Part shown: positions 2,835 through 42,886 of the stretch, piece after piece
Position numbering within the stretch: position 1 is the stretch's first letter
How the letters are laid out: every line of letters begins with the position of its first letter
Assembly (NCBI GenBank): GCA_002720855.1
Contig: PBIN01000009.1
Location: 153,222 to 217,221 of the forward strand
Direction: 5' to 3'
Length of the DNA stretch: 64,000 nt
Source: Rhodospirillaceae bacterium
GTDB taxonomy: Bacteria; Pseudomonadota; Alphaproteobacteria; MPNO01; UBA2964
Position numbers and translations under genes: made by a program
Notes under the pieces: generated by a model
Told to the model about the DNA's origin: nothing
Databases searched by the model: none
The model's input: the letters and a program-made list of their open reading frames with translations, nothing else

Positions 2835-4259
2835 ATGTCGATCGACCTAAATGCGAGAATTCCCAATAATGTGGACCTTGCTGAGGATCGCCGTCTTCAA
2901 CGTGCTCTGGAATCCTGGCAACCGAGCTTTATCAACTGGTGGAAAGAGCTCGGTCCCGAAGGAACGCTCAATTACGATGTGTATCTGCGAACGGCTGTAA
3001 GCGTCGAAGCCCAAGGCTGGGCGCATTTCGGTTATGTCAAAATGCCTGACTATCGCTGGGGTATTTTTGTTGCTCCGCCCGTTGAAGGGCGCACCATTCC
3101 GTTTGGTGAACACAAGGGCCAACCAGTATGGGACGAAGTGCCGGGCGAGTATCGCTCATCGCTGCGCCGGCTCATCGTGACGCAAGGCGATACTGAACCC
3201 GCATCTGTTGAGCAGCAGCGTTTGCTTGGTCTGACAGCACCGTCGCTGTACGACCTTCGAAATCTGTTCCAGGTCAATTGCGAAGAGGGGCGTCATCTCT
3301 GGGCAATGGTCTATCTGCTCCACGCTTATTTTGGACGCGATGGCCGCGAAGAGGCAGAGATGATGCTTGAACGGCATTCCGGCGATGTCGACAAGCCGCG
3401 CATTCTCGGCGCTTTCAATGAGGAAACACCCGATTGGTTGTCTTACTTCATGTTCACCTTCTTCACCGATCGCGATGGCAAGTATCAATTGTCATCGCTT
3501 GCTGAATCCGGCTTCGATCCGCTTGCTCGGACCTGTCAGTTTATGCTGACCGAGGAAGCGCATCACATGTTTATCGGTACAACCGGTATTATGCGGGTCG
3601 TGACACGAACCTGCGAAGTCATGGCTGAGTTAAAGACCGACGATCCGGAAAAGGTCCGGGCGGCGGGTGCCATCGATTTGCAGACATTGCAGAAGTATTT
3701 GAATTTTCATTACAGCGTGTCCCTTGATCTGTTCGGGCAGGAGGTCTCAACCAACGCCGCGAACTACTATACGGCTGGGCTTAAGGGCCGTTTCGAAGAG
3801 TCAAAGATTGAGGACGACCATGTGCTCAAAGATGATGTTGCACATCTCACAATGTTTGAAGATGGCGCTATCAAGGAAATCGAATACAACGCGCTGCTGG
3901 CTGTAAATGAACGGCTTCGGGACGACTACGTCACCGATTGTCAGCTTGGCGTCTCGCGCTGGAATAAAGTTATGAGGCGCCATAAGGTCGATTTCGAGCT
4001 GAAGCTGCCTCATCGTGGTTTTCACCGTTCGATAGGCACCTTTTCCGAAGGGAATATCACACCGGAAGGCGAGGTCATCAGCAAGGAAGAATGGAAGAAG
4101 AATGAGGATAAATGGCTGCCCTCACAGGCCGACCGTGAGTTCGTTATCTCGTTGCAAAGTGCCTGCATTGAGCCCGGCAAGATCGCCAGCTGGGTCGCAC
4201 CGCCAAGCCGCGGCATCGATGGTCATCCCTTCGATTACGAATACGTCCGGTTTGGTTGA
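2835..4259 (+). CDS. boxB: Benzoyl-CoA 2,3-epoxidase oxygenase component (BoxB-like diiron protein).
   Basis: 474 aa with a diiron-type E..H signature (EEGRHLWAMVYLLH, TEEAHHMF). Its start is 3 nt after the boxC stop, and it has an RBS AGAGGG. Confidence 0.75.
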   Translation: MSIDLNARIPNNVDLAEDRRLQRALESWQPSFINWWKELGPEGTLNYDVYLRTAVSVEAQGWAHFGYVKMPDYRWGIFVAPPVEGRTIPFGEHKGQPVWDEVPGEYRSSLRRLIVTQGDTEPASVEQQRLLGLTAPSLYDLRNLFQVNCEEGRHLWAMVYLLHAYFGRDGREEAEMMLERHSGDVDKPRILGAFNEETPDWLSYFMFTFFTDRDGKYQLSSLAESGFDPLARTCQFMLTEEAHHMFIGTTGIMRVVTRTCEVMAELKTDDPEKVRAAGAIDLQTLQKYLNFHYSVSLDLFGQEVSTNAANYYTAGLKGRFEESKIEDDHVLKDDVAHLTMFEDGAIKEIEYNALLAVNERLRDDYVTDCQLGVSRWNKVMRRHKVDFELKLPHRGFHRSIGTFSEGNITPEGEVISKEEWKKNEDKWLPSQADREFVISLQSACIEPGKIASWVAPPSRGIDGHPFDYEYVRFG

Positions 4260-15850: not shown

Positions 15851-16876
15851 ATGATTATCGATTGCCACGGCCACTATACAACCGAGCCGGAAGCGCTGAC
15901 CGATTACCGCAAAGAACAGTTAGCGGGTGTCGACAATGATCCCAACTTTGTGCCGTCCGAAGCGAGTTTTGAATGCAGCGACGATGAAATGCGCGAACGG
16001 CTTGAGCCAGCTCAAATCAAATTGCAACAGGACCGTGGTTCCGATTTAACAATCTTTTCGCCCCGTGCTGTTGGGATGGGCCATCATCTCGGTACTGCGA
16101 AAACCAGCGAATACTGGGCGACGATTTGTAACAATATGGTGCGCCGGGCCTGCGACCTTTATCCGGATAACTTCGTACCGGTATGCCAGTTGCCGCAATA
16201 TCCCGGCATTGAGCCCAGAAACTGCATTGCCGAGCTGGAACGCTGTGTCAATGAGATGGGTTTTATTGGGTTGAACCTGAATCCAGACCCTTCTGGAGCT
16301 ATGTGGACTGATCCACCGATCACAGACAAATGGTGGTATCCAATTTACGAGAAAATGGTCGAGCTTGACGTCCCCGCGATGTTGCATGTCAGCGGATCGT
16401 GCAATCCGAACTTCCATCATACCGGATCCCACTATCTCTGCGGTGACACGACAGTGTTTATGCAGTTGCTCATGTCAGACCTGTTTAAGGAATTCCCGAC
16501 ACTGAAATTCATTATTCCCCACGGTGGTGGTGCCGTGCCGTATCATTGGGGCCGCTTCCGGGGTCTTGCACAAGATATGGGCCGTCCGCCATTGGATGAA
16601 CTTTTGCTCAACAATGTGTTTTTCGACACTTGCGTTTATCACCAGGCGGGAATCGATTGCATGCTCAAAGTGATTCCCACGAAAAATATTTTGTTCGCTT
16701 CAGAAATGGTCGGTGCAGTGCGCGGTGTCGATCCCGAAACCGGATATAACTACGATGACACCAAACGTTACATCGATGCGGCCGATATTACAGACGCCGA
16801 AAGAGCGCAGATTTTCTCGGAAAATGCGTTCAATGTGTTCTCTCGTCTGGAAGGCGCAATCGGCGGCCGCAAATAG
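15851..16876 (+). CDS. Amidohydrolase-2 family hydratase/decarboxylase, LigJ-like (4-oxalomesaconate hydratase-like).
   Basis: 341 aa, N-terminal MIIDCHGHYT and C-terminal FASEMV. It sits 22 nt after the aldolase gene. Confidence 0.6.
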   Translation: MIIDCHGHYTTEPEALTDYRKEQLAGVDNDPNFVPSEASFECSDDEMRERLEPAQIKLQQDRGSDLTIFSPRAVGMGHHLGTAKTSEYWATICNNMVRRACDLYPDNFVPVCQLPQYPGIEPRNCIAELERCVNEMGFIGLNLNPDPSGAMWTDPPITDKWWYPIYEKMVELDVPAMLHVSGSCNPNFHHTGSHYLCGDTTVFMQLLMSDLFKEFPTLKFIIPHGGGAVPYHWGRFRGLAQDMGRPPLDELLLNNVFFDTCVYHQAGIDCMLKVIPTKNILFASEMVGAVRGVDPETGYNYDDTKRYIDAADITDAERAQIFSENAFNVFSRLEGAIGGRK

Positions 16877-16896
16877 CTGTTTATATTAAGGTAGAT

Positions 16897-16934
16897 GAAA
16901 CCGGTCGTAATTTTACGCGGCCGGTTTCTTTTTG
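16897..16934 (+). terminator. Rho-independent terminator.
   Basis: Stem GAAACCGG, 16-nt loop, stem CCGGTTTC, then TTTTTG. Confidence 0.6.
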
Positions 16935-16989
16935 AAATTCATCGATCCCGACAAAAAATTTCATCTATGTGAAATTTTTTTTCCACAGC

Positions 16990-17032
16990 TTTTCCACAGC
17001 GAAATCGGCAGTTTTCCACAGGCTATAAATAG
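16990..17032. promoter_or_regulatory. Three copies of TTTTCCACAG (DnaA-box-like, compare TTATCCACA) upstream of the RNR genes.
   Basis: Copies at 16990-16999, 17001-17010 and 17023-17032. Confidence 0.4.
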
Positions 17033-17062
17033 TTTCACCCCGTTGCATCCACCTAATTATGC

Positions 17063-17107
17063 ACAAAATATGGTATGTTGTAGGGGTCAAAACACTAATT
17101 CTTGTTG
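17063..17107. promoter_or_regulatory. Two imperfect NrdR-box-like 16-mers: ACAAAATATGGTATGT and ACACTAATTCTTGTTG.
   Basis: ACA-N10-TGT architecture, spaced about 29 bp apart, located about 240 bp upstream of the RNR start. Confidence 0.25.
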
Positions 17108-17342
17108 ACGGGACGATTCAGCTTCGGCAAACTTCACTCCGTTCCGTCATGTTGGGGGAAGGGAAGTTCAGCTTCACGCCTGCTCCAAATTGGGCCTGAA
17201 AAGGCCAAGCAGGTGCCGGGGTTTCGACTCCTCTGAAAACTCCTGACATTACGCGGATCCGGGGATTTGGTTGTCCCGGACGATTCATAAAGTGGGGGAT
17301 CTCCGGGATTATGTCGTTGTGTAGCGTAAAGGGAGTTTTGGG

Positions 17343-19253
17343 GTGCTAGATATCGTAAACGGAGACATTACACCTGAAGTCTTTCAGACCGAACGTGGTA
17401 TCCGCGTCATGGTCGATCACAGCCGTGATGAAAAGTTGACCGAATTCGGTAAAGAGACCCTGTCAGATCGATATTTAATGCCGGATGAAAGTTATCAGGA
17501 TCTCTTTGCACGTGTCGCGGCGCATTACGCGGACGATTCGGAGCACGCTCAGCGGCTTTACGATTACATCAGTAACCTATGGTTCATGCCCTCCACGCCG
17601 GTTCTTTCGAATGGCGGTACCAAGCGCGGATTGCCAATCTCGTGCTTTCTGAATGAGGCAAATGACAGCCTGAGCGGCATTGTGAATCTATGGAACGAGA
17701 ATGTCTGGCTCGCGGCAAAGGGCGGCGGCATTGGTAGCTATTGGGGCAATCTGCGTTCCATCGGCGAGAAAGTTGGCGCCAATGGCAAAACCTCGGGCAT
17801 TATTCCATTCATTCGCGTTATGGATTCGCTGACGCTGGCGATCAGTCAAGGCTCGTTGCGGCGTGGGTCTGCGGCAATCTATCTGCCAATTGACCATCCC
17901 GAAATTGAAGAATTTATCGAATTACGGCGTCCGACCGGTGGCGATCCCAACCGGAAAGCGCTCAACTTGCATCACGGGATTCTACTTACCGACGAGTTTA
18001 TGCGTTTGGTTGAGGAAGATGGCGAAATGCCGCTTCGCAGCCCGAAAGACCGTCACGTGGTACGGACTGTTTCCGCCCGCTCATTATGGATTCGCCTGCT
18101 GACGGCGCGCGTCGAGACCGGCGAGCCCTATTTCATCTATATCGACCATGTAAACAAGGCGATCCCGGAACATCACAAACTTGCTAATCTTGAAGTCAAA
18201 ATGTCCAACCTGTGCAGTGAGATTACGCTGCCGACGGGCACCGATAAGGATGGCAAGGAACGTACCGCCGTATGCTGCTTGTGCTCGCTCAATCTTGAAA
18301 CCTGGATGGAGTGGAACGAAGAACCGCAATTTATTCCTGATGTCATGCGGTTCCTCGACAATGTTCTGCAGGATTTCATCGATAATGCGCCCGATGAGAT
18401 GGACCGCGCCCGCTATTCGGCAATGCGCGAGCGTTCGGTTGGTCTTGGCGTGATGGGTCTGCACTCTTTCTACCAGCAGCAGAATATTCCGTTGGAATCG
18501 GTTATGGCGAAAGTGTGGAACAAGAAAATGTTCAAACACATCCGCGAACAGGCTGATGTGGCGTCAGTTGAGTTGGCACATGAACGTGGTGCCTGCCCGG
18601 ATGCCGCCGATTACGGCATCATGGAACGGTTCTCGAGCAAAATGGCGGTCGCCCCGACGGCATCAATTTCGATCATTTGTGGCGGTTCATCGCCTGGTAT
18701 CGAGCCGATTGCTGCGAATTCCTTTACGCACAAAACGCTGTCCGGCTCGTTTAGCGTCAAAAACAAGTATCTCAAGGAGCTGCTGGCCGAAAAAGGCAAG
18801 GATACCGACGAAATCTGGTCATCTATCACGACGCATGAAGGCTCGGTTCAGCATCTCGATTTCCTGACAGACGATGAAAAAGACGTGTTCAAGACGGCGT
18901 TTGAGCTTGATCAGCGCTGGATTATCGATCTTGCGGGCGATCGTTCCGAATTCATCTGTCAGTCGCAATCAATAAACGTATTCCTGCCGGCCGATGTCGA
19001 AAAGAAAGTGCTGCATCAAATCCATTGGCAGGCCTGGAAGAAAGGCGTCAAAAGCCTCTATTACTGCCGGTCCAAATCGATCCAGCGTGCCGAAGCAGTA
19101 TCGCAGAAGCAGGAAGTCACCGAGATTGCGGAGGACGGCATTATGCCGGTGCCGTCGCCGGATGCGATTGAGATCCCGCTGGCTGCTGCTGCTTCAAGCG
19201 AAGGCGGTTCGGAAAACGACAATGATTACGAGGAATGCCTCTCTTGTCAGTAA
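17343..19253 (+). CDS. nrdA: Class I ribonucleoside-diphosphate reductase large (alpha) subunit; short form without an ATP-cone.
   Basis: GTG start after an AAGGGAG RBS. An NrdA/E-type catalytic region (LCSEITLPT) is present. Confidence 0.75.
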   Translation: MLDIVNGDITPEVFQTERGIRVMVDHSRDEKLTEFGKETLSDRYLMPDESYQDLFARVAAHYADDSEHAQRLYDYISNLWFMPSTPVLSNGGTKRGLPISCFLNEANDSLSGIVNLWNENVWLAAKGGGIGSYWGNLRSIGEKVGANGKTSGIIPFIRVMDSLTLAISQGSLRRGSAAIYLPIDHPEIEEFIELRRPTGGDPNRKALNLHHGILLTDEFMRLVEEDGEMPLRSPKDRHVVRTVSARSLWIRLLTARVETGEPYFIYIDHVNKAIPEHHKLANLEVKMSNLCSEITLPTGTDKDGKERTAVCCLCSLNLETWMEWNEEPQFIPDVMRFLDNVLQDFIDNAPDEMDRARYSAMRERSVGLGVMGLHSFYQQQNIPLESVMAKVWNKKMFKHIREQADVASVELAHERGACPDAADYGIMERFSSKMAVAPTASISIICGGSSPGIEPIAANSFTHKTLSGSFSVKNKYLKELLAEKGKDTDEIWSSITTHEGSVQHLDFLTDDEKDVFKTAFELDQRWIIDLAGDRSEFICQSQSINVFLPADVEKKVLHQIHWQAWKKGVKSLYYCRSKSIQRAEAVSQKQEVTEIAEDGIMPVPSPDAIEIPLAAAASSEGGSENDNDYEECLSCQ

Positions 19254-19328: not shown

Positions 19329-20294
19329 ATGTCAGGGCTGTTGGAAGAAAAGATCGTCTATAAGCCGTTTCGCTATCCGTGGTGTTACGACGCTTGGCTG
19401 ACGCAGCAGCGTGTTCATTGGATTCCCGAAGAGGTGCCGTTGGCCGATGACGTCAAGGATTGGCACAACAAGCTAAATCCCGTGGAACGTCATACCCTGA
19501 CACAGATTTTCCGCTTCTTCACGCAGGCCGATATCGAGGTCAATAACTGCTATATGAAGCATTACTCGCAGGTCTTTAAACCGACCGAAGTGCAGATGAT
19601 GCTGGCGGCGTTCTCGAATATTGAGACCGTTCATATCGCAGCCTATTCCTATCTGCTCGATACTATCGGCATGCCCGAGACCGAGTATCAGGCTTTCCTC
19701 CGCTACAAGGAAATGAAGGACAAGTACGACTATATGCAGGGCTTCAACTGCAATAGTAAGGTGGATATCGCCAAGACGCTCGCAGTGTTCGCGGCCTTTA
19801 CTGAAGGGCTTCAGCTCTTTGCGTCATTTGCGATCCTGCTCAACTTCCCGCGTCACAACAAGATGAAGGGGATGGGCCAGATCGTTTCCTGGTCGGTGCG
19901 GGATGAGAGCCTGCATACTGAATCCATGATCAAGCTTTTCCGGACCTTTGTGTCGGAAAACCCTGAAATCTGGACAGCTGATTTACAGCGCGAAATCTAC
20001 AAAGCCTGCAATACAGTCGTGGATCACGAAGATGCCTTTATCAATTTGGCGTTTGAGTTGGGACCGGTTGAAGGGCTGACGGCGGGTGAGGTGAAGGATT
20101 ACATCCGTTATATCGCTGACCGGCGTTTGTCGCAGCTCGGCCTGCAGCCGATCTTCCGTATCGAAAGCAACCCGCTCCCCTGGCTGGATGAAATCCTCAA
20201 CGGGGTTGAGCATGCGAATTTCTTCGAAAACCGTGCGACCGAGTATTCCAAAGCGGCAACGCGAGGAGACTGGGACGAGGTATGGAACAGCTGA
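19329..20294 (+). CDS. nrdB: Class I ribonucleotide reductase small (beta) subunit.
   Basis: Ferritin-like R2 fold. IETVHIAAY carries the E-x-x-H ligands and a Tyr four residues after the His. An upstream Asp (QADIEV) is spaced 31 residues from that Glu, as in E. coli R2. Confidence 0.75.
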   Translation: MSGLLEEKIVYKPFRYPWCYDAWLTQQRVHWIPEEVPLADDVKDWHNKLNPVERHTLTQIFRFFTQADIEVNNCYMKHYSQVFKPTEVQMMLAAFSNIETVHIAAYSYLLDTIGMPETEYQAFLRYKEMKDKYDYMQGFNCNSKVDIAKTLAVFAAFTEGLQLFASFAILLNFPRHNKMKGMGQIVSWSVRDESLHTESMIKLFRTFVSENPEIWTADLQREIYKACNTVVDHEDAFINLAFELGPVEGLTAGEVKDYIRYIADRRLSQLGLQPIFRIESNPLPWLDEILNGVEHANFFENRATEYSKAATRGDWDEVWNS

Positions 20295-20338
20295 TTGCTT
20301 AGCGTAGTTTCTTAGAGTAGGCACCGGAGCAATTAGCC

Positions 20339-20374
20339 GGGCCGCCGTCCGCAAGGGCGGCGGCCCATTTCTTT
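20339..20374 (+). terminator. GC-rich hairpin terminator after nrdB.
   Basis: Stem GGGCCGCCG, 10-nt loop, stem CGGCGGCCC, then ATTTCTTT. Confidence 0.5.
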
Positions 20375-20395
20375 AGCCCACCAATGGATTTTGAT

Positions 20396-29869: not shown

Positions 29870-30883
29870 ATGCGCGCTGTATGCCTTCACGAACAAGGCG
29901 GAATTGAAAACCTTGTTTTGGAAGAAAATTATGACGATCCGAAAGCCGGAGAAGGACAAGTTGTCATCCGGGTAAAAGCAACGTCGCTCAATTACCACGA
30001 TGTGTTCACCTGCCGCGGCATGCCGGGGATCAAGATTCCAATGCCGATGATCATCGGCCTCGATGTTGCGGGAGAAATTACTGAAGTCGGCAGCGGTGTG
30101 GAAAATTGGAGCGCCGGTGATCGGGTGCTCGTTAATCCCCTTGATCCCACAGACCCAACAAAGGGCCTAATGGGGGAAATGCTGCCCGGTGGTACGGCTG
30201 AGTACTGTCTTGTTGACGCGACGCGGCTCATCACCATCCCCGAGGGATGTTCCTACGAGCAGGCGGCAGCACTTCCCGTCGCCTACGGCACCGCACATCG
30301 CATGATGATCGCCAATGGCGGACTTCAGGGCGGTGAACGCGTGCTTATTTTGGGGGCGAGCGGTGGTGTCGGTTCATGCTGTGTGCTGCTGGCAAAGGCT
30401 ATGGGCTGTGAGGTTGTCGCCTGTGGCAGTACCGAGGACAAGCTTAAGGCACTGACAGAGTGGGGCGCCGATCACGTTATCAATTACAAGGAAGAGGATT
30501 TCGTCAAAGCGATCTGGTCGAAGTTTGAAAAGCCTCACCGCCGCAAATTCGAGGGTGGTGTCGATGTTGTGATCAACTTTACCGGCGGTGATACCTGGGT
30601 GCCGTCGTTTAAGGTTACGCGCCGCGGCGGAAAAATTCTTACCTGTGGTGCGACAGCCGGTTTCGATCCAAAGACTGATTTGCGGTACGTCTGGACATTT
30701 GAACTCAAAATTCTCGGTTCAAACAGCTGGCTGCCCGAAGATCTCGAAACCCTGATGAAGATGATTGCCGAAGACAAGCTTAAACCCATCATCGACACCG
30801 TATTGCCTTTGGAAGATACAGCGAAGGGTGTAAAGCTGCTCGAGGATCGTGAAGTCATCGGAAAAATTATAATTACGCCTTGA
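29870..30883 (+). CDS. Quinone oxidoreductase-like medium-chain dehydrogenase/reductase.
   Basis: GASGGVGS NAD(P) motif. Confidence 0.75.
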   Translation: MRAVCLHEQGGIENLVLEENYDDPKAGEGQVVIRVKATSLNYHDVFTCRGMPGIKIPMPMIIGLDVAGEITEVGSGVENWSAGDRVLVNPLDPTDPTKGLMGEMLPGGTAEYCLVDATRLITIPEGCSYEQAAALPVAYGTAHRMMIANGGLQGGERVLILGASGGVGSCCVLLAKAMGCEVVACGSTEDKLKALTEWGADHVINYKEEDFVKAIWSKFEKPHRRKFEGGVDVVINFTGGDTWVPSFKVTRRGGKILTCGATAGFDPKTDLRYVWTFELKILGSNSWLPEDLETLMKMIAEDKLKPIIDTVLPLEDTAKGVKLLEDREVIGKIIITP

Positions 30884-42404: not shown

Positions 42405-42414
42405 TTTTCCACAG
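42405..42414. promoter_or_regulatory. TTTTCCACAG DnaA-box-like motif upstream of gcrA.
   Basis: The same 10-mer appears three times upstream of nrdA. Confidence 0.3.
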
Positions 42415-42520
42415 AAACCTTGGAATTGAGCCAAAAATCAGTTTGCAACGGCAATACGACTATATATAGTAGCCTTGCTGTCATGGGGACACGATATATA
42501 GCAATAGAAGGACGGCAAAA

Positions 42521-42886
42521 ATGCAATGGACACCGGAACGCGTTGAGGTTCTAACCCGCCTGTGGGCCGAAGGCCTATCGGCCAGGCAGATAGCCGCAAA
42601 ACTAGGGGGTGTTACGCGCAACGCCGTAATTGGCAAGGCGCATCGGCTGAATTTACAGCGTGGTGCGCCCGTTCCAGAGCCGCCACCACCACCGGAACCT
42701 GTCATTCAGGAGGAACCGCCGGTTGCTCTTGGCCCGGACGTAAAGTCATGGATGTGCCGTTGGCAGACCGAAGATCCGGGGCGCCACGGTCTCTTTATTT
42801 GTGGAAAGACGGCTCAGCCGGGGCGTCCGTACTGCGCTGAACACATTACGGCGTCATATCTGCAGAGAAAACGCAGCGCCGCCTGA
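42521..42886 (+). CDS. gcrA: GcrA cell-cycle regulator (short form, 121 aa).
   Basis: MQWTPERVEVLTRLWAEGLSARQIAAKLGGVTRNAVIGKAHRL matches the conserved GcrA N-terminal domain. A proline-rich linker follows. Confidence 0.8.
   Translation: MQWTPERVEVLTRLWAEGLSARQIAAKLGGVTRNAVIGKAHRLNLQRGAPVPEPPPPPEPVIQEEPPVALGPDVKSWMCRWQTEDPGRHGLFICGKTAQPGRPYCAEHITASYLQRKRSAA

Follow-up and report, generated by a model that had tools for sequence, protein, structure and literature searches.

Predicted DnaA and NrdR operators and a structured leader upstream of a class I ribonucleotide reductase operon in uncultured marine Alphaproteobacteria

We analysed a 64,000-nucleotide stretch of Rhodospirillaceae contig PBIN01000009.1, hereafter the window, and within it the region upstream of a class I ribonucleotide reductase (RNR) operon. 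The operon comprises nrdA for the large subunit (17343-19253, + strand; GTG start, 636 aa; Pfam Ribonuc_red_lgN and lgC; NCBIfam NF006577) and a small-subunit gene (19329-20294, + strand; assigned by Pfam and NF007186). A gap of 466 nt (16877-17342) separates nrdA from an upstream amidohydrolase gene (Amidohydro_2) whose stop lies at 16876. Our preferred reading, which we consider likely, is that the region upstream of 17343 is the control region of the operon, with DnaA and NrdR operators, a transcription start near 17140 and a structured leader, rather than one long leader. An earlier note had proposed a leader of about 460 nt, a figure that takes in the terminator of the upstream gene; the leader predicted here is about 203 nt long.

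Comparisons drew on 80 related nrdA loci from species-representative genomes, nearly all marine alphaproteobacterial metagenome-assembled genomes labelled Rhodospirillaceae or Rhodospirillales. The fifteen closest loci (L001-L015) share 79-96% NrdA identity with the window over the whole protein, L001 (OX638326.1) being the closest at 96%. Binding-site counts refer to 88 related nrdA loci, in which an NrdR pair was scored when it reached at least 10/12 defining positions, with C4 and G13 in both boxes, no more than 600 nt upstream.

DnaA and NrdR sites at the predicted nrd promoter

Three exact, co-oriented DnaA boxes lie on the + strand at 16979-16988, 16990-16999 and 17012-17021, each reading TTTTCCACA(G), that is, the 10-mer TTTTCCACAG; the earlier description of three copies, two of them in tandem, was accurate. 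The window holds four copies of TTTTCCACAG against 0.20 expected, a number reached in none of 100 shuffles, and five occurrences of TTWTCCACA against 0.77 expected. As an 11-mer, TTTTCCACAG[C/G], the repeat has start-to-start spacings of 11 and 22 bp, which therefore place the three boxes on one face of the helix. Each copy of TTTTCCACA is at most one mismatch from TTATCCACA, and the tight spacing in a single orientation would, judged from sequence, permit cooperative binding; for E. coli, a preference for closely spaced site pairs has been reported (PMC11317965). The boxes are conserved in L001-L008, and the same positions carry the canonical TTATCCACA in L006, L009, L013 and L015. Such an exchange of TTTTCCACA for TTATCCACA at fixed positions is what one would expect if these are DnaA boxes, and it supports the identification. 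An exact TTWTCCACA stands upstream of nrdA in 65 of the 88 loci. The fifth TTTTCCACA of the window, at 30097 on the - strand, falls within a coding region, and we take it as a probable chance occurrence.

The NrdR site has been defined in a 2026 mutational study as two 16-bp boxes that flank a non-conserved linker of 15-16 bp and both have C4, A6, A8, T9, T11 and G13 (PMC13584703). On the + strand upstream of nrdA, box 1 (GCACAAAATATGGTAT, 17061-17076) matches all six defining positions and box 2 (ACACTAATTCTTGTTG, 17092-17107) matches five, with T at position 8 and hence a TT middle; the same study reports that a non-AT middle is tolerated if AT content is high (PMC13584703). C4 and G13 are present in both boxes, A6/A8/T9/T11 are complete in box 1 and three of four in box 2, and seven of the eight positions between C4 and G13 are A or T in each box. 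The pair (17061-17107) thus scores 11/12 with a 15-bp linker, and 0.38 pairs of at least 11/12 are expected per shuffled window. Two NrdR-like 16-mers had been reported at 17063..17107; they are indeed present, with the register of box 1 corrected by 2 bp. Among the fifteen closest loci the linker columns vary and both boxes are invariant, and an NrdR pair precedes nrdA in 84 of the 88 loci. Comparing upstream regions for motif conservation, a check that the note had suggested, thus returned both site types in most relatives.

Downstream of the three DnaA boxes lie two degenerate DnaA-box-like 9-mers on the + strand, GCATCCACC (17045-17053, 6/9) and TTATGCACA (17057-17065, 8/9), the latter sharing 5 bp with the left half of NrdR box 1. 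The block CATCCACC...TTATGCACA is conserved in the fifteen closest loci, and the position equivalent to 17057-17065 carries an exact TTTTCCACA in L014 and TTCTCCACA in L010 and L011. This arrangement suggests, at the level of sequence, that DnaA and NrdR may compete for the site.

Three further candidates did not hold up or were not found. A second NrdR pair over the start codon (17312-17358) scores 10/12 in the window and 5-9/12 in relatives, and we attribute it to chance and coding constraint. Searches of 16800-17400 returned neither CtrA boxes (TTAA-N7-TTAA) nor alphaproteobacterial LexA boxes (GTTC-N7-GTTC).

Downstream of the boxes, conservation points to a sigma-70 promoter on the + strand, with a -35 element TTGACG (17105-17110), a 17-bp spacer and a -10 element CAAACT (17128-17133). 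The -10 element matches TATAAT at only two of six positions (A2, T6), and a consensus scan did not list this pair. Across 15-16 aligned relatives, TTGAC is nevertheless invariant, as are C, A and T in the -10 element 17-18 bp further on; the -10 variants (CAAACT, CACACT, CATGAT, CAGTAT) always read CAnnnT, and no other promoter-like pair in the gap is conserved. Transcription therefore most likely starts near 17140-17141, as predicted from the conserved elements at 17105-17133, which gives the leader of about 203 nt. Relative to this predicted start the DnaA boxes (16979-17021) lie at about -161 to -120 and the NrdR boxes at about -80 to -34. Box 2 overlaps the conserved predicted -35 element by 3 bp, the downstream genes encode RNR subunits, and an operator overlapping the RNA polymerase site is the usual repressor geometry. 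With the predicted promoter downstream of them, the DnaA and NrdR sites would be operator DNA and not part of a leader. The note had named a start downstream of the repeats as evidence against its proposal; such a start is what we predict, and it touches the word leader only, not the regulation. The conservation footprint has the same outline: boxes, -35 and -10 are invariant, linker and spacers vary, and the region upstream of DnaA box 1 is not conserved.

An inverted repeat around the -10 element, TGACGGGACG and CGTTCCGTCA, was set aside when its left arm proved not to be conserved in relatives. L001 carries an extra insertion of about 30 nt between NrdR box 2 and the -35 element.

A start upstream of the DnaA boxes, either at a promoter near 16932-16959 or DnaA-dependent via TATAAA (17024-17029), would make the boxes roadblocks within a leader of more than 300 nt. 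A promoter-like TTGAAA-16-AAAAAT does occur at 16932-16959, but one such match is exactly the shuffle expectation (1.0), and nothing upstream of DnaA box 1 is conserved. The sequence CTATAAAT, right after DnaA box 3, is conserved in L003-L008, yet it lacks a -35 element and is absent in short-leader relatives. Distant relatives (L016-L024 and others) do have DnaA boxes downstream of their NrdR boxes. Against these stand the invariant TTGAC/CAnnnT at 17105-17133, with NrdR box 2 on the -35 element in the usual operator geometry, and a conserved RNA helix, P1, that starts right at the predicted +1. We regard an upstream start as improbable.

The distant nrdA loci (L016-L024, L028-L030 and others) show inverted DnaA-box pairs, for example GGATATCCACAACATGTTGTGGATAT and GTTATCCACAG...CTTGTGGATA. 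These pairs sit both upstream and downstream of the NrdR-boxed promoter, and in these lineages DnaA boxes do fall within a long leader.

That the repeats are functionless chance or low-complexity features is barely credible: an AT-rich stretch does lie just upstream (about 16930-16980), but the enrichment statistics and the position-specific conservation in dozens of species-level relatives contradict this account. Layered control of the RNR operon by DnaA and NrdR is instead well supported by comparison of sequences, because both site types keep the same positions while the linker varies and TTATCCACA replaces TTTTCCACA. It also has precedent, in that E. coli nrdAB is regulated by DnaA and NrdR, and DnaA control of the Caulobacter RNR genes has been proposed.

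Under this preferred reading, NrdR would bind its operator over the -35 element and act by the mechanism established for it elsewhere. Some 120-160 bp before the start, the three phased high-affinity boxes would seed a DnaA oligomer, which may spread over the two weaker boxes, one of them overlapping NrdR box 1. Such an oligomer would couple RNR transcription to the state of replication initiation, perhaps via competition with NrdR, and its effect could be in either direction. On the upstream side, an intrinsic-terminator-like hairpin with a T-run (16897..16928, + strand; a 12-bp stem with seven GC pairs, then TTTTTGAAAT) is predicted to end the amidohydrolase gene and shield the nrd promoter from read-through.

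A conserved rod in the predicted leader

The first ~118 nt of the predicted leader (17141-17258, + strand) fold into a 5'-terminal hairpin with a predicted energy of -48.2 kcal/mol (z -3.2). This rod consists, all on the + strand, of P1 (UCCGU 17143-17147 with GCGGA 17253-17257), P2 (AUGUUGGGGG 17149-17158 with CUCCUGACAU 17240-17249), P3 (AGGG 17160-17163 with CUCU 17231-17234), an apical stem (CGCCUGCU 17177-17184 with AGCAGGUG 17208-17215) and a tip (GGCCU 17193-17197 with AGGCC 17202-17206). The conserved P1 helix begins exactly at the predicted +1.

We compared 23 distinct leaders: those of the window and L001-L015, and seven metagenome contigs obtained by a pattern scan. All 23 fold independently into the same rod. 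A covariance model was built on this structure, and in the alignment made by that model 75.5% of cells are paired, versus 36-45% with slid partners; 21 of the 32 pairs are changed on both sides, and covariation reaches 0.278 against about 0.1 for slid partners and 0.20 for shuffles, none of 500 shuffles attaining the observed value. The apical stem is the best-supported helix (91% paired). P1 offers individual compensations: one base is missing from each strand in L011 (GUUCC-UCAGC with GCUGAAGAAC), L012 pairs GGUUUGU with GCGAAUC, and L014 pairs GUUCC with GGAAC. In these 23 related sequences, aligned by a fitted model, the relatives thus share a fold with compensatory changes, as is characteristic of a cis-regulatory RNA structure.

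The rod is limited to this clade: its model matched nothing else in the window and none of the 65 remoter nrdA loci (L016-L080), whose leaders differ and often contain inverted pairs of DnaA boxes. In the metagenome scan, 37 stretches matched the pattern and nrdA came next in nine of them. True matches to the rod pattern all precede nrdA, and the remaining stretches are chance matches expected from about 20 specified bases.

No Rfam family matched the leader at E<=1 in a 7-kb search, at the gathering score in the whole window or at E<=10 with the leader alone; a cobalamin, purine/2'-deoxyguanosine (2'-dG) or other Rfam riboswitch was dismissed for want of any covariance-model match. An intrinsic terminator or attenuator within the leader was likewise dismissed, the only terminator-like site within 16700-17500 being that of the upstream gene. 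We also set aside a leader peptide: a 16-codon open reading frame at 17150 is found in 11 of the 23 leaders, with its start some 10 nt into the predicted transcript. Modelling thus presents the rod as a new element, unmatched in Rfam and confined to its clade, whose regulatory function we infer.

The nrdA ribosome-binding site (RBS) consists of a Shine-Dalgarno (SD) sequence AGGGAG (17330-17335) and the GTG start codon at 17343 (17330..17345, + strand). GGGAGG and the start codon are conserved among relatives, the codon being ATG in L006, L013 and L112. In L001 the RBS and start region GGGGTGCCAGATAGCGTAAACGTA stands in tandem at 2935-3030, at the 5' end of nrdA, in three full copies and one partial copy, an arrangement that could stem from faulty assembly or from a genuine duplication.

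The rod may be able to mask this site. Its 3' strand contains an anti-SD stretch, AAAACUCC (17236..17243, + strand), that is complementary at 8/8 positions to GGAGUUUU (17332-17339), and its 5' strand resembles the SD region (70% over 20 nt). When the full-length window leader is folded, the rod opens in the minimum-energy structure and its 3' strand sequesters the SD, which is paired with a predicted probability of 1.0 at an opening cost of 5.2 kcal/mol. Over the 23 leaders the opening cost ranges from 0 to 7.5 kcal/mol, the partners being rod elements in most. From these folds we infer that the leader would fit a three-element translational switch. The 118-nt rod, closing at the mRNA 5' end, would probably protect the transcript and keep two CUCC-containing anti-SD stretches paired; its opening would free them to pair with the RBS, adding a translational layer, which is the least certain step of the proposed mechanism.

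Two near-isoenergetic folds that differ in SD access, together with conserved sequence and covarying structure found solely upstream of nrdA and matched by no Rfam family, could also describe the aptamer of a new metabolite riboswitch, sensing for instance a nucleotide or deoxynucleotide and controlling RNR translation; extra feedback would be useful for an enzyme without the ATP-cone domain. Yet the element is a single irregular rod with no multi-helix junction or pseudoknot, it has few conserved unpaired bases, those that are conserved being mostly helical, its internal segments differ greatly between relatives, and its range is narrow (0 of L016-L080). We consider a riboswitch quite improbable.

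The 3' part of the leader contains a pair of CCGGGGATT-like repeats, GGATC(T)CCGGG(G)ATT elements that the earlier note had placed in the last 100 nt and that we find as GGATCCGGGGATT (17255-17267) and GGATCTCCGGGATT (17297-17310), with GTCCCGGA (17273-17280) between them; a third copy, CCGGGGTTT, occurs at 17216-17224. The downstream repeat forms the 3' arm of a second hairpin (17273..17310, + strand), in which GUCCCGGA (17273-17280) pairs with UCCGGGAU (17303-17310) and an inner helix joins GAUUC to GGAUC. Nine of the 13 long leaders are predicted to form this hairpin, from differing sequences (TCCCGGA/TCCGGGA, GCCCUG/CAGGGU, AUCCCAUC/GAUGGGAU); its covariation in the long leaders is 0.345 versus 0.20 shuffled (0/500), and it is absent from short-leader relatives. 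Relatives lack a U-rich tail after 17273-17310. Part of the upstream repeat falls within the 3' strand of P1, and even short leaders retain its CGGGG(A/U)U core. We rejected a conserved alternative helix between GTCCCGGA and the upstream repeat: 78% of cells pair, but 296 of 500 shuffles reach the observed value, so there is no covariation. Of the alternative pairings once suggested for GTCCCGGA, then, the downstream one covaries and the upstream one is possible without covariation. The folding and covariance analysis that the note had called for accordingly returned two covarying structures, the rod and the second hairpin.

Part of the leader may be conserved as DNA. Within CGACTCC, the nearly invariant GACTC at 17226..17230 (+ strand) is a GANTC site of the CcrM type that also lies in the 3' strand of the rod; it reads GAGTC in L005, L007, L106 and L117, an exchange that preserves GANTC, which is kept in 20 of the 23 leaders. 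Two further GANTC sites occur at 17115-17119, in the promoter spacer, and at 17282-17286. The sites at 17115, 17226 and 17282 might accordingly be CcrM sites read by GcrA and RNA polymerase, constituting an epigenetic cell-cycle layer. A gcrA gene is present in the window, and GANTC is depleted there (154 observed versus 249 expected) yet occurs three times in the 466-nt gap, a pattern reported for CcrM-bearing Alphaproteobacteria (PMC3973325). A ccrM mutant of Caulobacter, moreover, shows reduced expression of nrdA, a gene with a conserved GANTC in its promoter (PMC3973325). Three sites in the gap against about 1.1 expected is, however, no significant excess; the site with the best conservation is at +86, within the RNA helix region, and is missing from L008 and L014; the promoter-spacer site is kept only in the window, L001, L005, L007 and L106; and no ccrM was seen in the window. 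We therefore consider such a layer rather unlikely as the account of this conservation; methylation control would be compatible with our preferred reading as an extra layer.

The 10-mer GGACGATTCA occurs exactly twice, at 17111-17120 in the promoter spacer and at 17278-17287 in the second leader hairpin, each copy holding a GANTC. L005 and L007 have GANTC at both GGACGATTCA positions (GAGTC, GAATC).

The same module upstream of gcrA

The fourth copy of TTTTCCACAG in the window, an exact DnaA box at 42405-42414, lies about 50 nt upstream of a second NrdR pair, which matches all 12 defining positions: CGACTATATATAGTAG (42457-42472), a 16-bp linker and ACACGATATATAGCAA (42489-42504). A GcrA-family gene (42521-42886, + strand) begins with an ATG 16 nt beyond the end of the pair. 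Nine further gcrA lineages were fetched (48-83% protein identity), and in seven of them (8/10 with the window) an equivalent pair of 11/12 or 12/12 is present, in each case the sole such pair in its 2.7-kb locus; (T/G)TCCACAG usually stands upstream. Conservation of gcrA box 1 is partly explained by its overlap with a conserved predicted -10 element, TATAGT (42465-42470); box 2, close to the start, is independent evidence.

gcrA is a documented DnaA target in Caulobacter, and the searchable literature contained no link between NrdR and gcrA. NrdR has been described as RNR-specific, and its lone proposed non-RNR target is doubted because that site has a single box. The identical TTTTCCACAG and the 12/12 NrdR pair before gcrA lend support, from sequence, to a cell-cycle link for RNR. 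The note's idea of layered RNR control coupled to the cell cycle accordingly survives in its DnaA and NrdR sites, which are conserved, and in the gcrA module; its placing of the boxes within the leader does not.

In one relative, gcrA and nrdAB stand on a single 44-kb contig (Ga0181587_10000237, which supplied both L092 and L119). The two loci are 25 kb apart in the window, and their linkage may be conserved. Directly 3' of the RNR small-subunit gene (20335-20377), Rfam gave a match to ctRNA_p42d that is below threshold (28 bits versus a gathering score of 50) and has the look of a common GC-rich terminator hairpin followed by a T-run.

Relation to known systems and biological meaning

Several observations weigh against our preferred reading. 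Neither an nrdR gene nor a dnaA (domain IV) gene was found in the 64-kb window or the fetched loci, and the distance of the strong DnaA boxes from the promoter (-120 to -160) is unusually large, which makes direct contact with RNA polymerase unlikely. For the leader, the rod statistics come from 23 related sequences in an alignment fitted to the model, and a G-rich SD readily finds C/U-rich partners. Predicted SD accessibility varies among relatives, with an unpaired fraction of about 0.9 for L010 and L011 and of 0 for the window, so a uniform switch is not demonstrated. The conservation of GACTC at 17226 could, in addition, reflect DNA methylation rather than RNA, two roles that are inseparable here.

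The closest parallel is E. coli nrdAB, an operon of the same type with both regulators, several upstream DnaA boxes and an NrdR pair at the RNA polymerase site. Here, by contrast, three strong DnaA boxes are identical, co-oriented and phased at 11/22 bp, 120-160 bp upstream, a DnaA-like 9-mer lies over NrdR box 1, the enzyme has no ATP-cone and the leader of ~203 nt is structured. The Caulobacter crescentus DnaA regulon (gcrA, ftsZ and podJ, with RNR proposed) likewise belongs to an alphaproteobacterium, with DnaA boxes before gcrA and RNR genes, and nrdA is tied there to GANTC methylation (PMC3973325). NrdR boxes at gcrA and a structured nrd leader were, however, unreported in the Caulobacter literature examined, and the organism here belongs to an uncultured marine Rhodospirillales-like lineage. 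With the NrdR operators of Streptomyces coelicolor, Listeria and Pseudomonas the nrd site shares two partly palindromic 16-bp boxes, a non-conserved 15-16-bp linker and promoter overlap; it differs in the TT instead of AT middle of box 2, a tolerated deviation (PMC13584703), and in having a second canonical pair at a non-RNR gene, gcrA.

Among RNA elements, RNR genes are known to be preceded by riboswitches, namely the cobalamin riboswitch upstream of nrd operons and the 2'-deoxyguanosine riboswitch of Mesoplasma. The nrd leader resembles these in being a conserved structured 5' untranslated region (UTR) before RNR genes with possible RBS occlusion, and differs in being a simple rod with no Rfam match at E up to 10. 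A more general class comprises 5'-terminal stabilising hairpins and three-element translational leaders, which combine anti-anti-SD, anti-SD and SD segments. The nrd rod agrees with this class in closing at the very first bases of the predicted transcript and in having an SD-like 5' strand and a 3' strand complementary both to that strand and to the SD region; the predicted equilibrium, by contrast, differs between relatives here. The control logic is thus of a known kind, and the structured leader and the shared gcrA module are the new elements.

Control of RNR by DnaA and NrdR is textbook knowledge in E. coli and merely proposed for Alphaproteobacteria; here it is footprinted in about 90 species-level genomes of uncultured marine lineages. 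An ATP-cone normally provides feedback by deoxyadenosine triphosphate (dATP) on RNR. No domain search hit identified one in the large subunit (17343-19253), which matched just lgN and lgC (NF006577 being a 604-position model), and the enzyme may for this reason not be inhibited by dATP, in which case feedback would fall to transcriptional control by NrdR. As an ATP-cone-bearing repressor, NrdR may then be the main route of deoxynucleoside triphosphate (dNTP) feedback, since the enzyme itself lacks the cone. The conserved, Rfam-unmatched 5'-UTR structure could add control of translation or stability. As a tentative extension, to which we give somewhat less than even weight, one module of DnaA box(es) and an NrdR pair on the promoter may control both the RNR operon and gcrA in this alphaproteobacterial group, with NrdR feeding dNTP status into the cell cycle and the rod leader switching ribosome access. 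If so, NrdR, a sensor of ATP and dATP, would extend its regulon from the RNR genes to the cell-cycle circuit.

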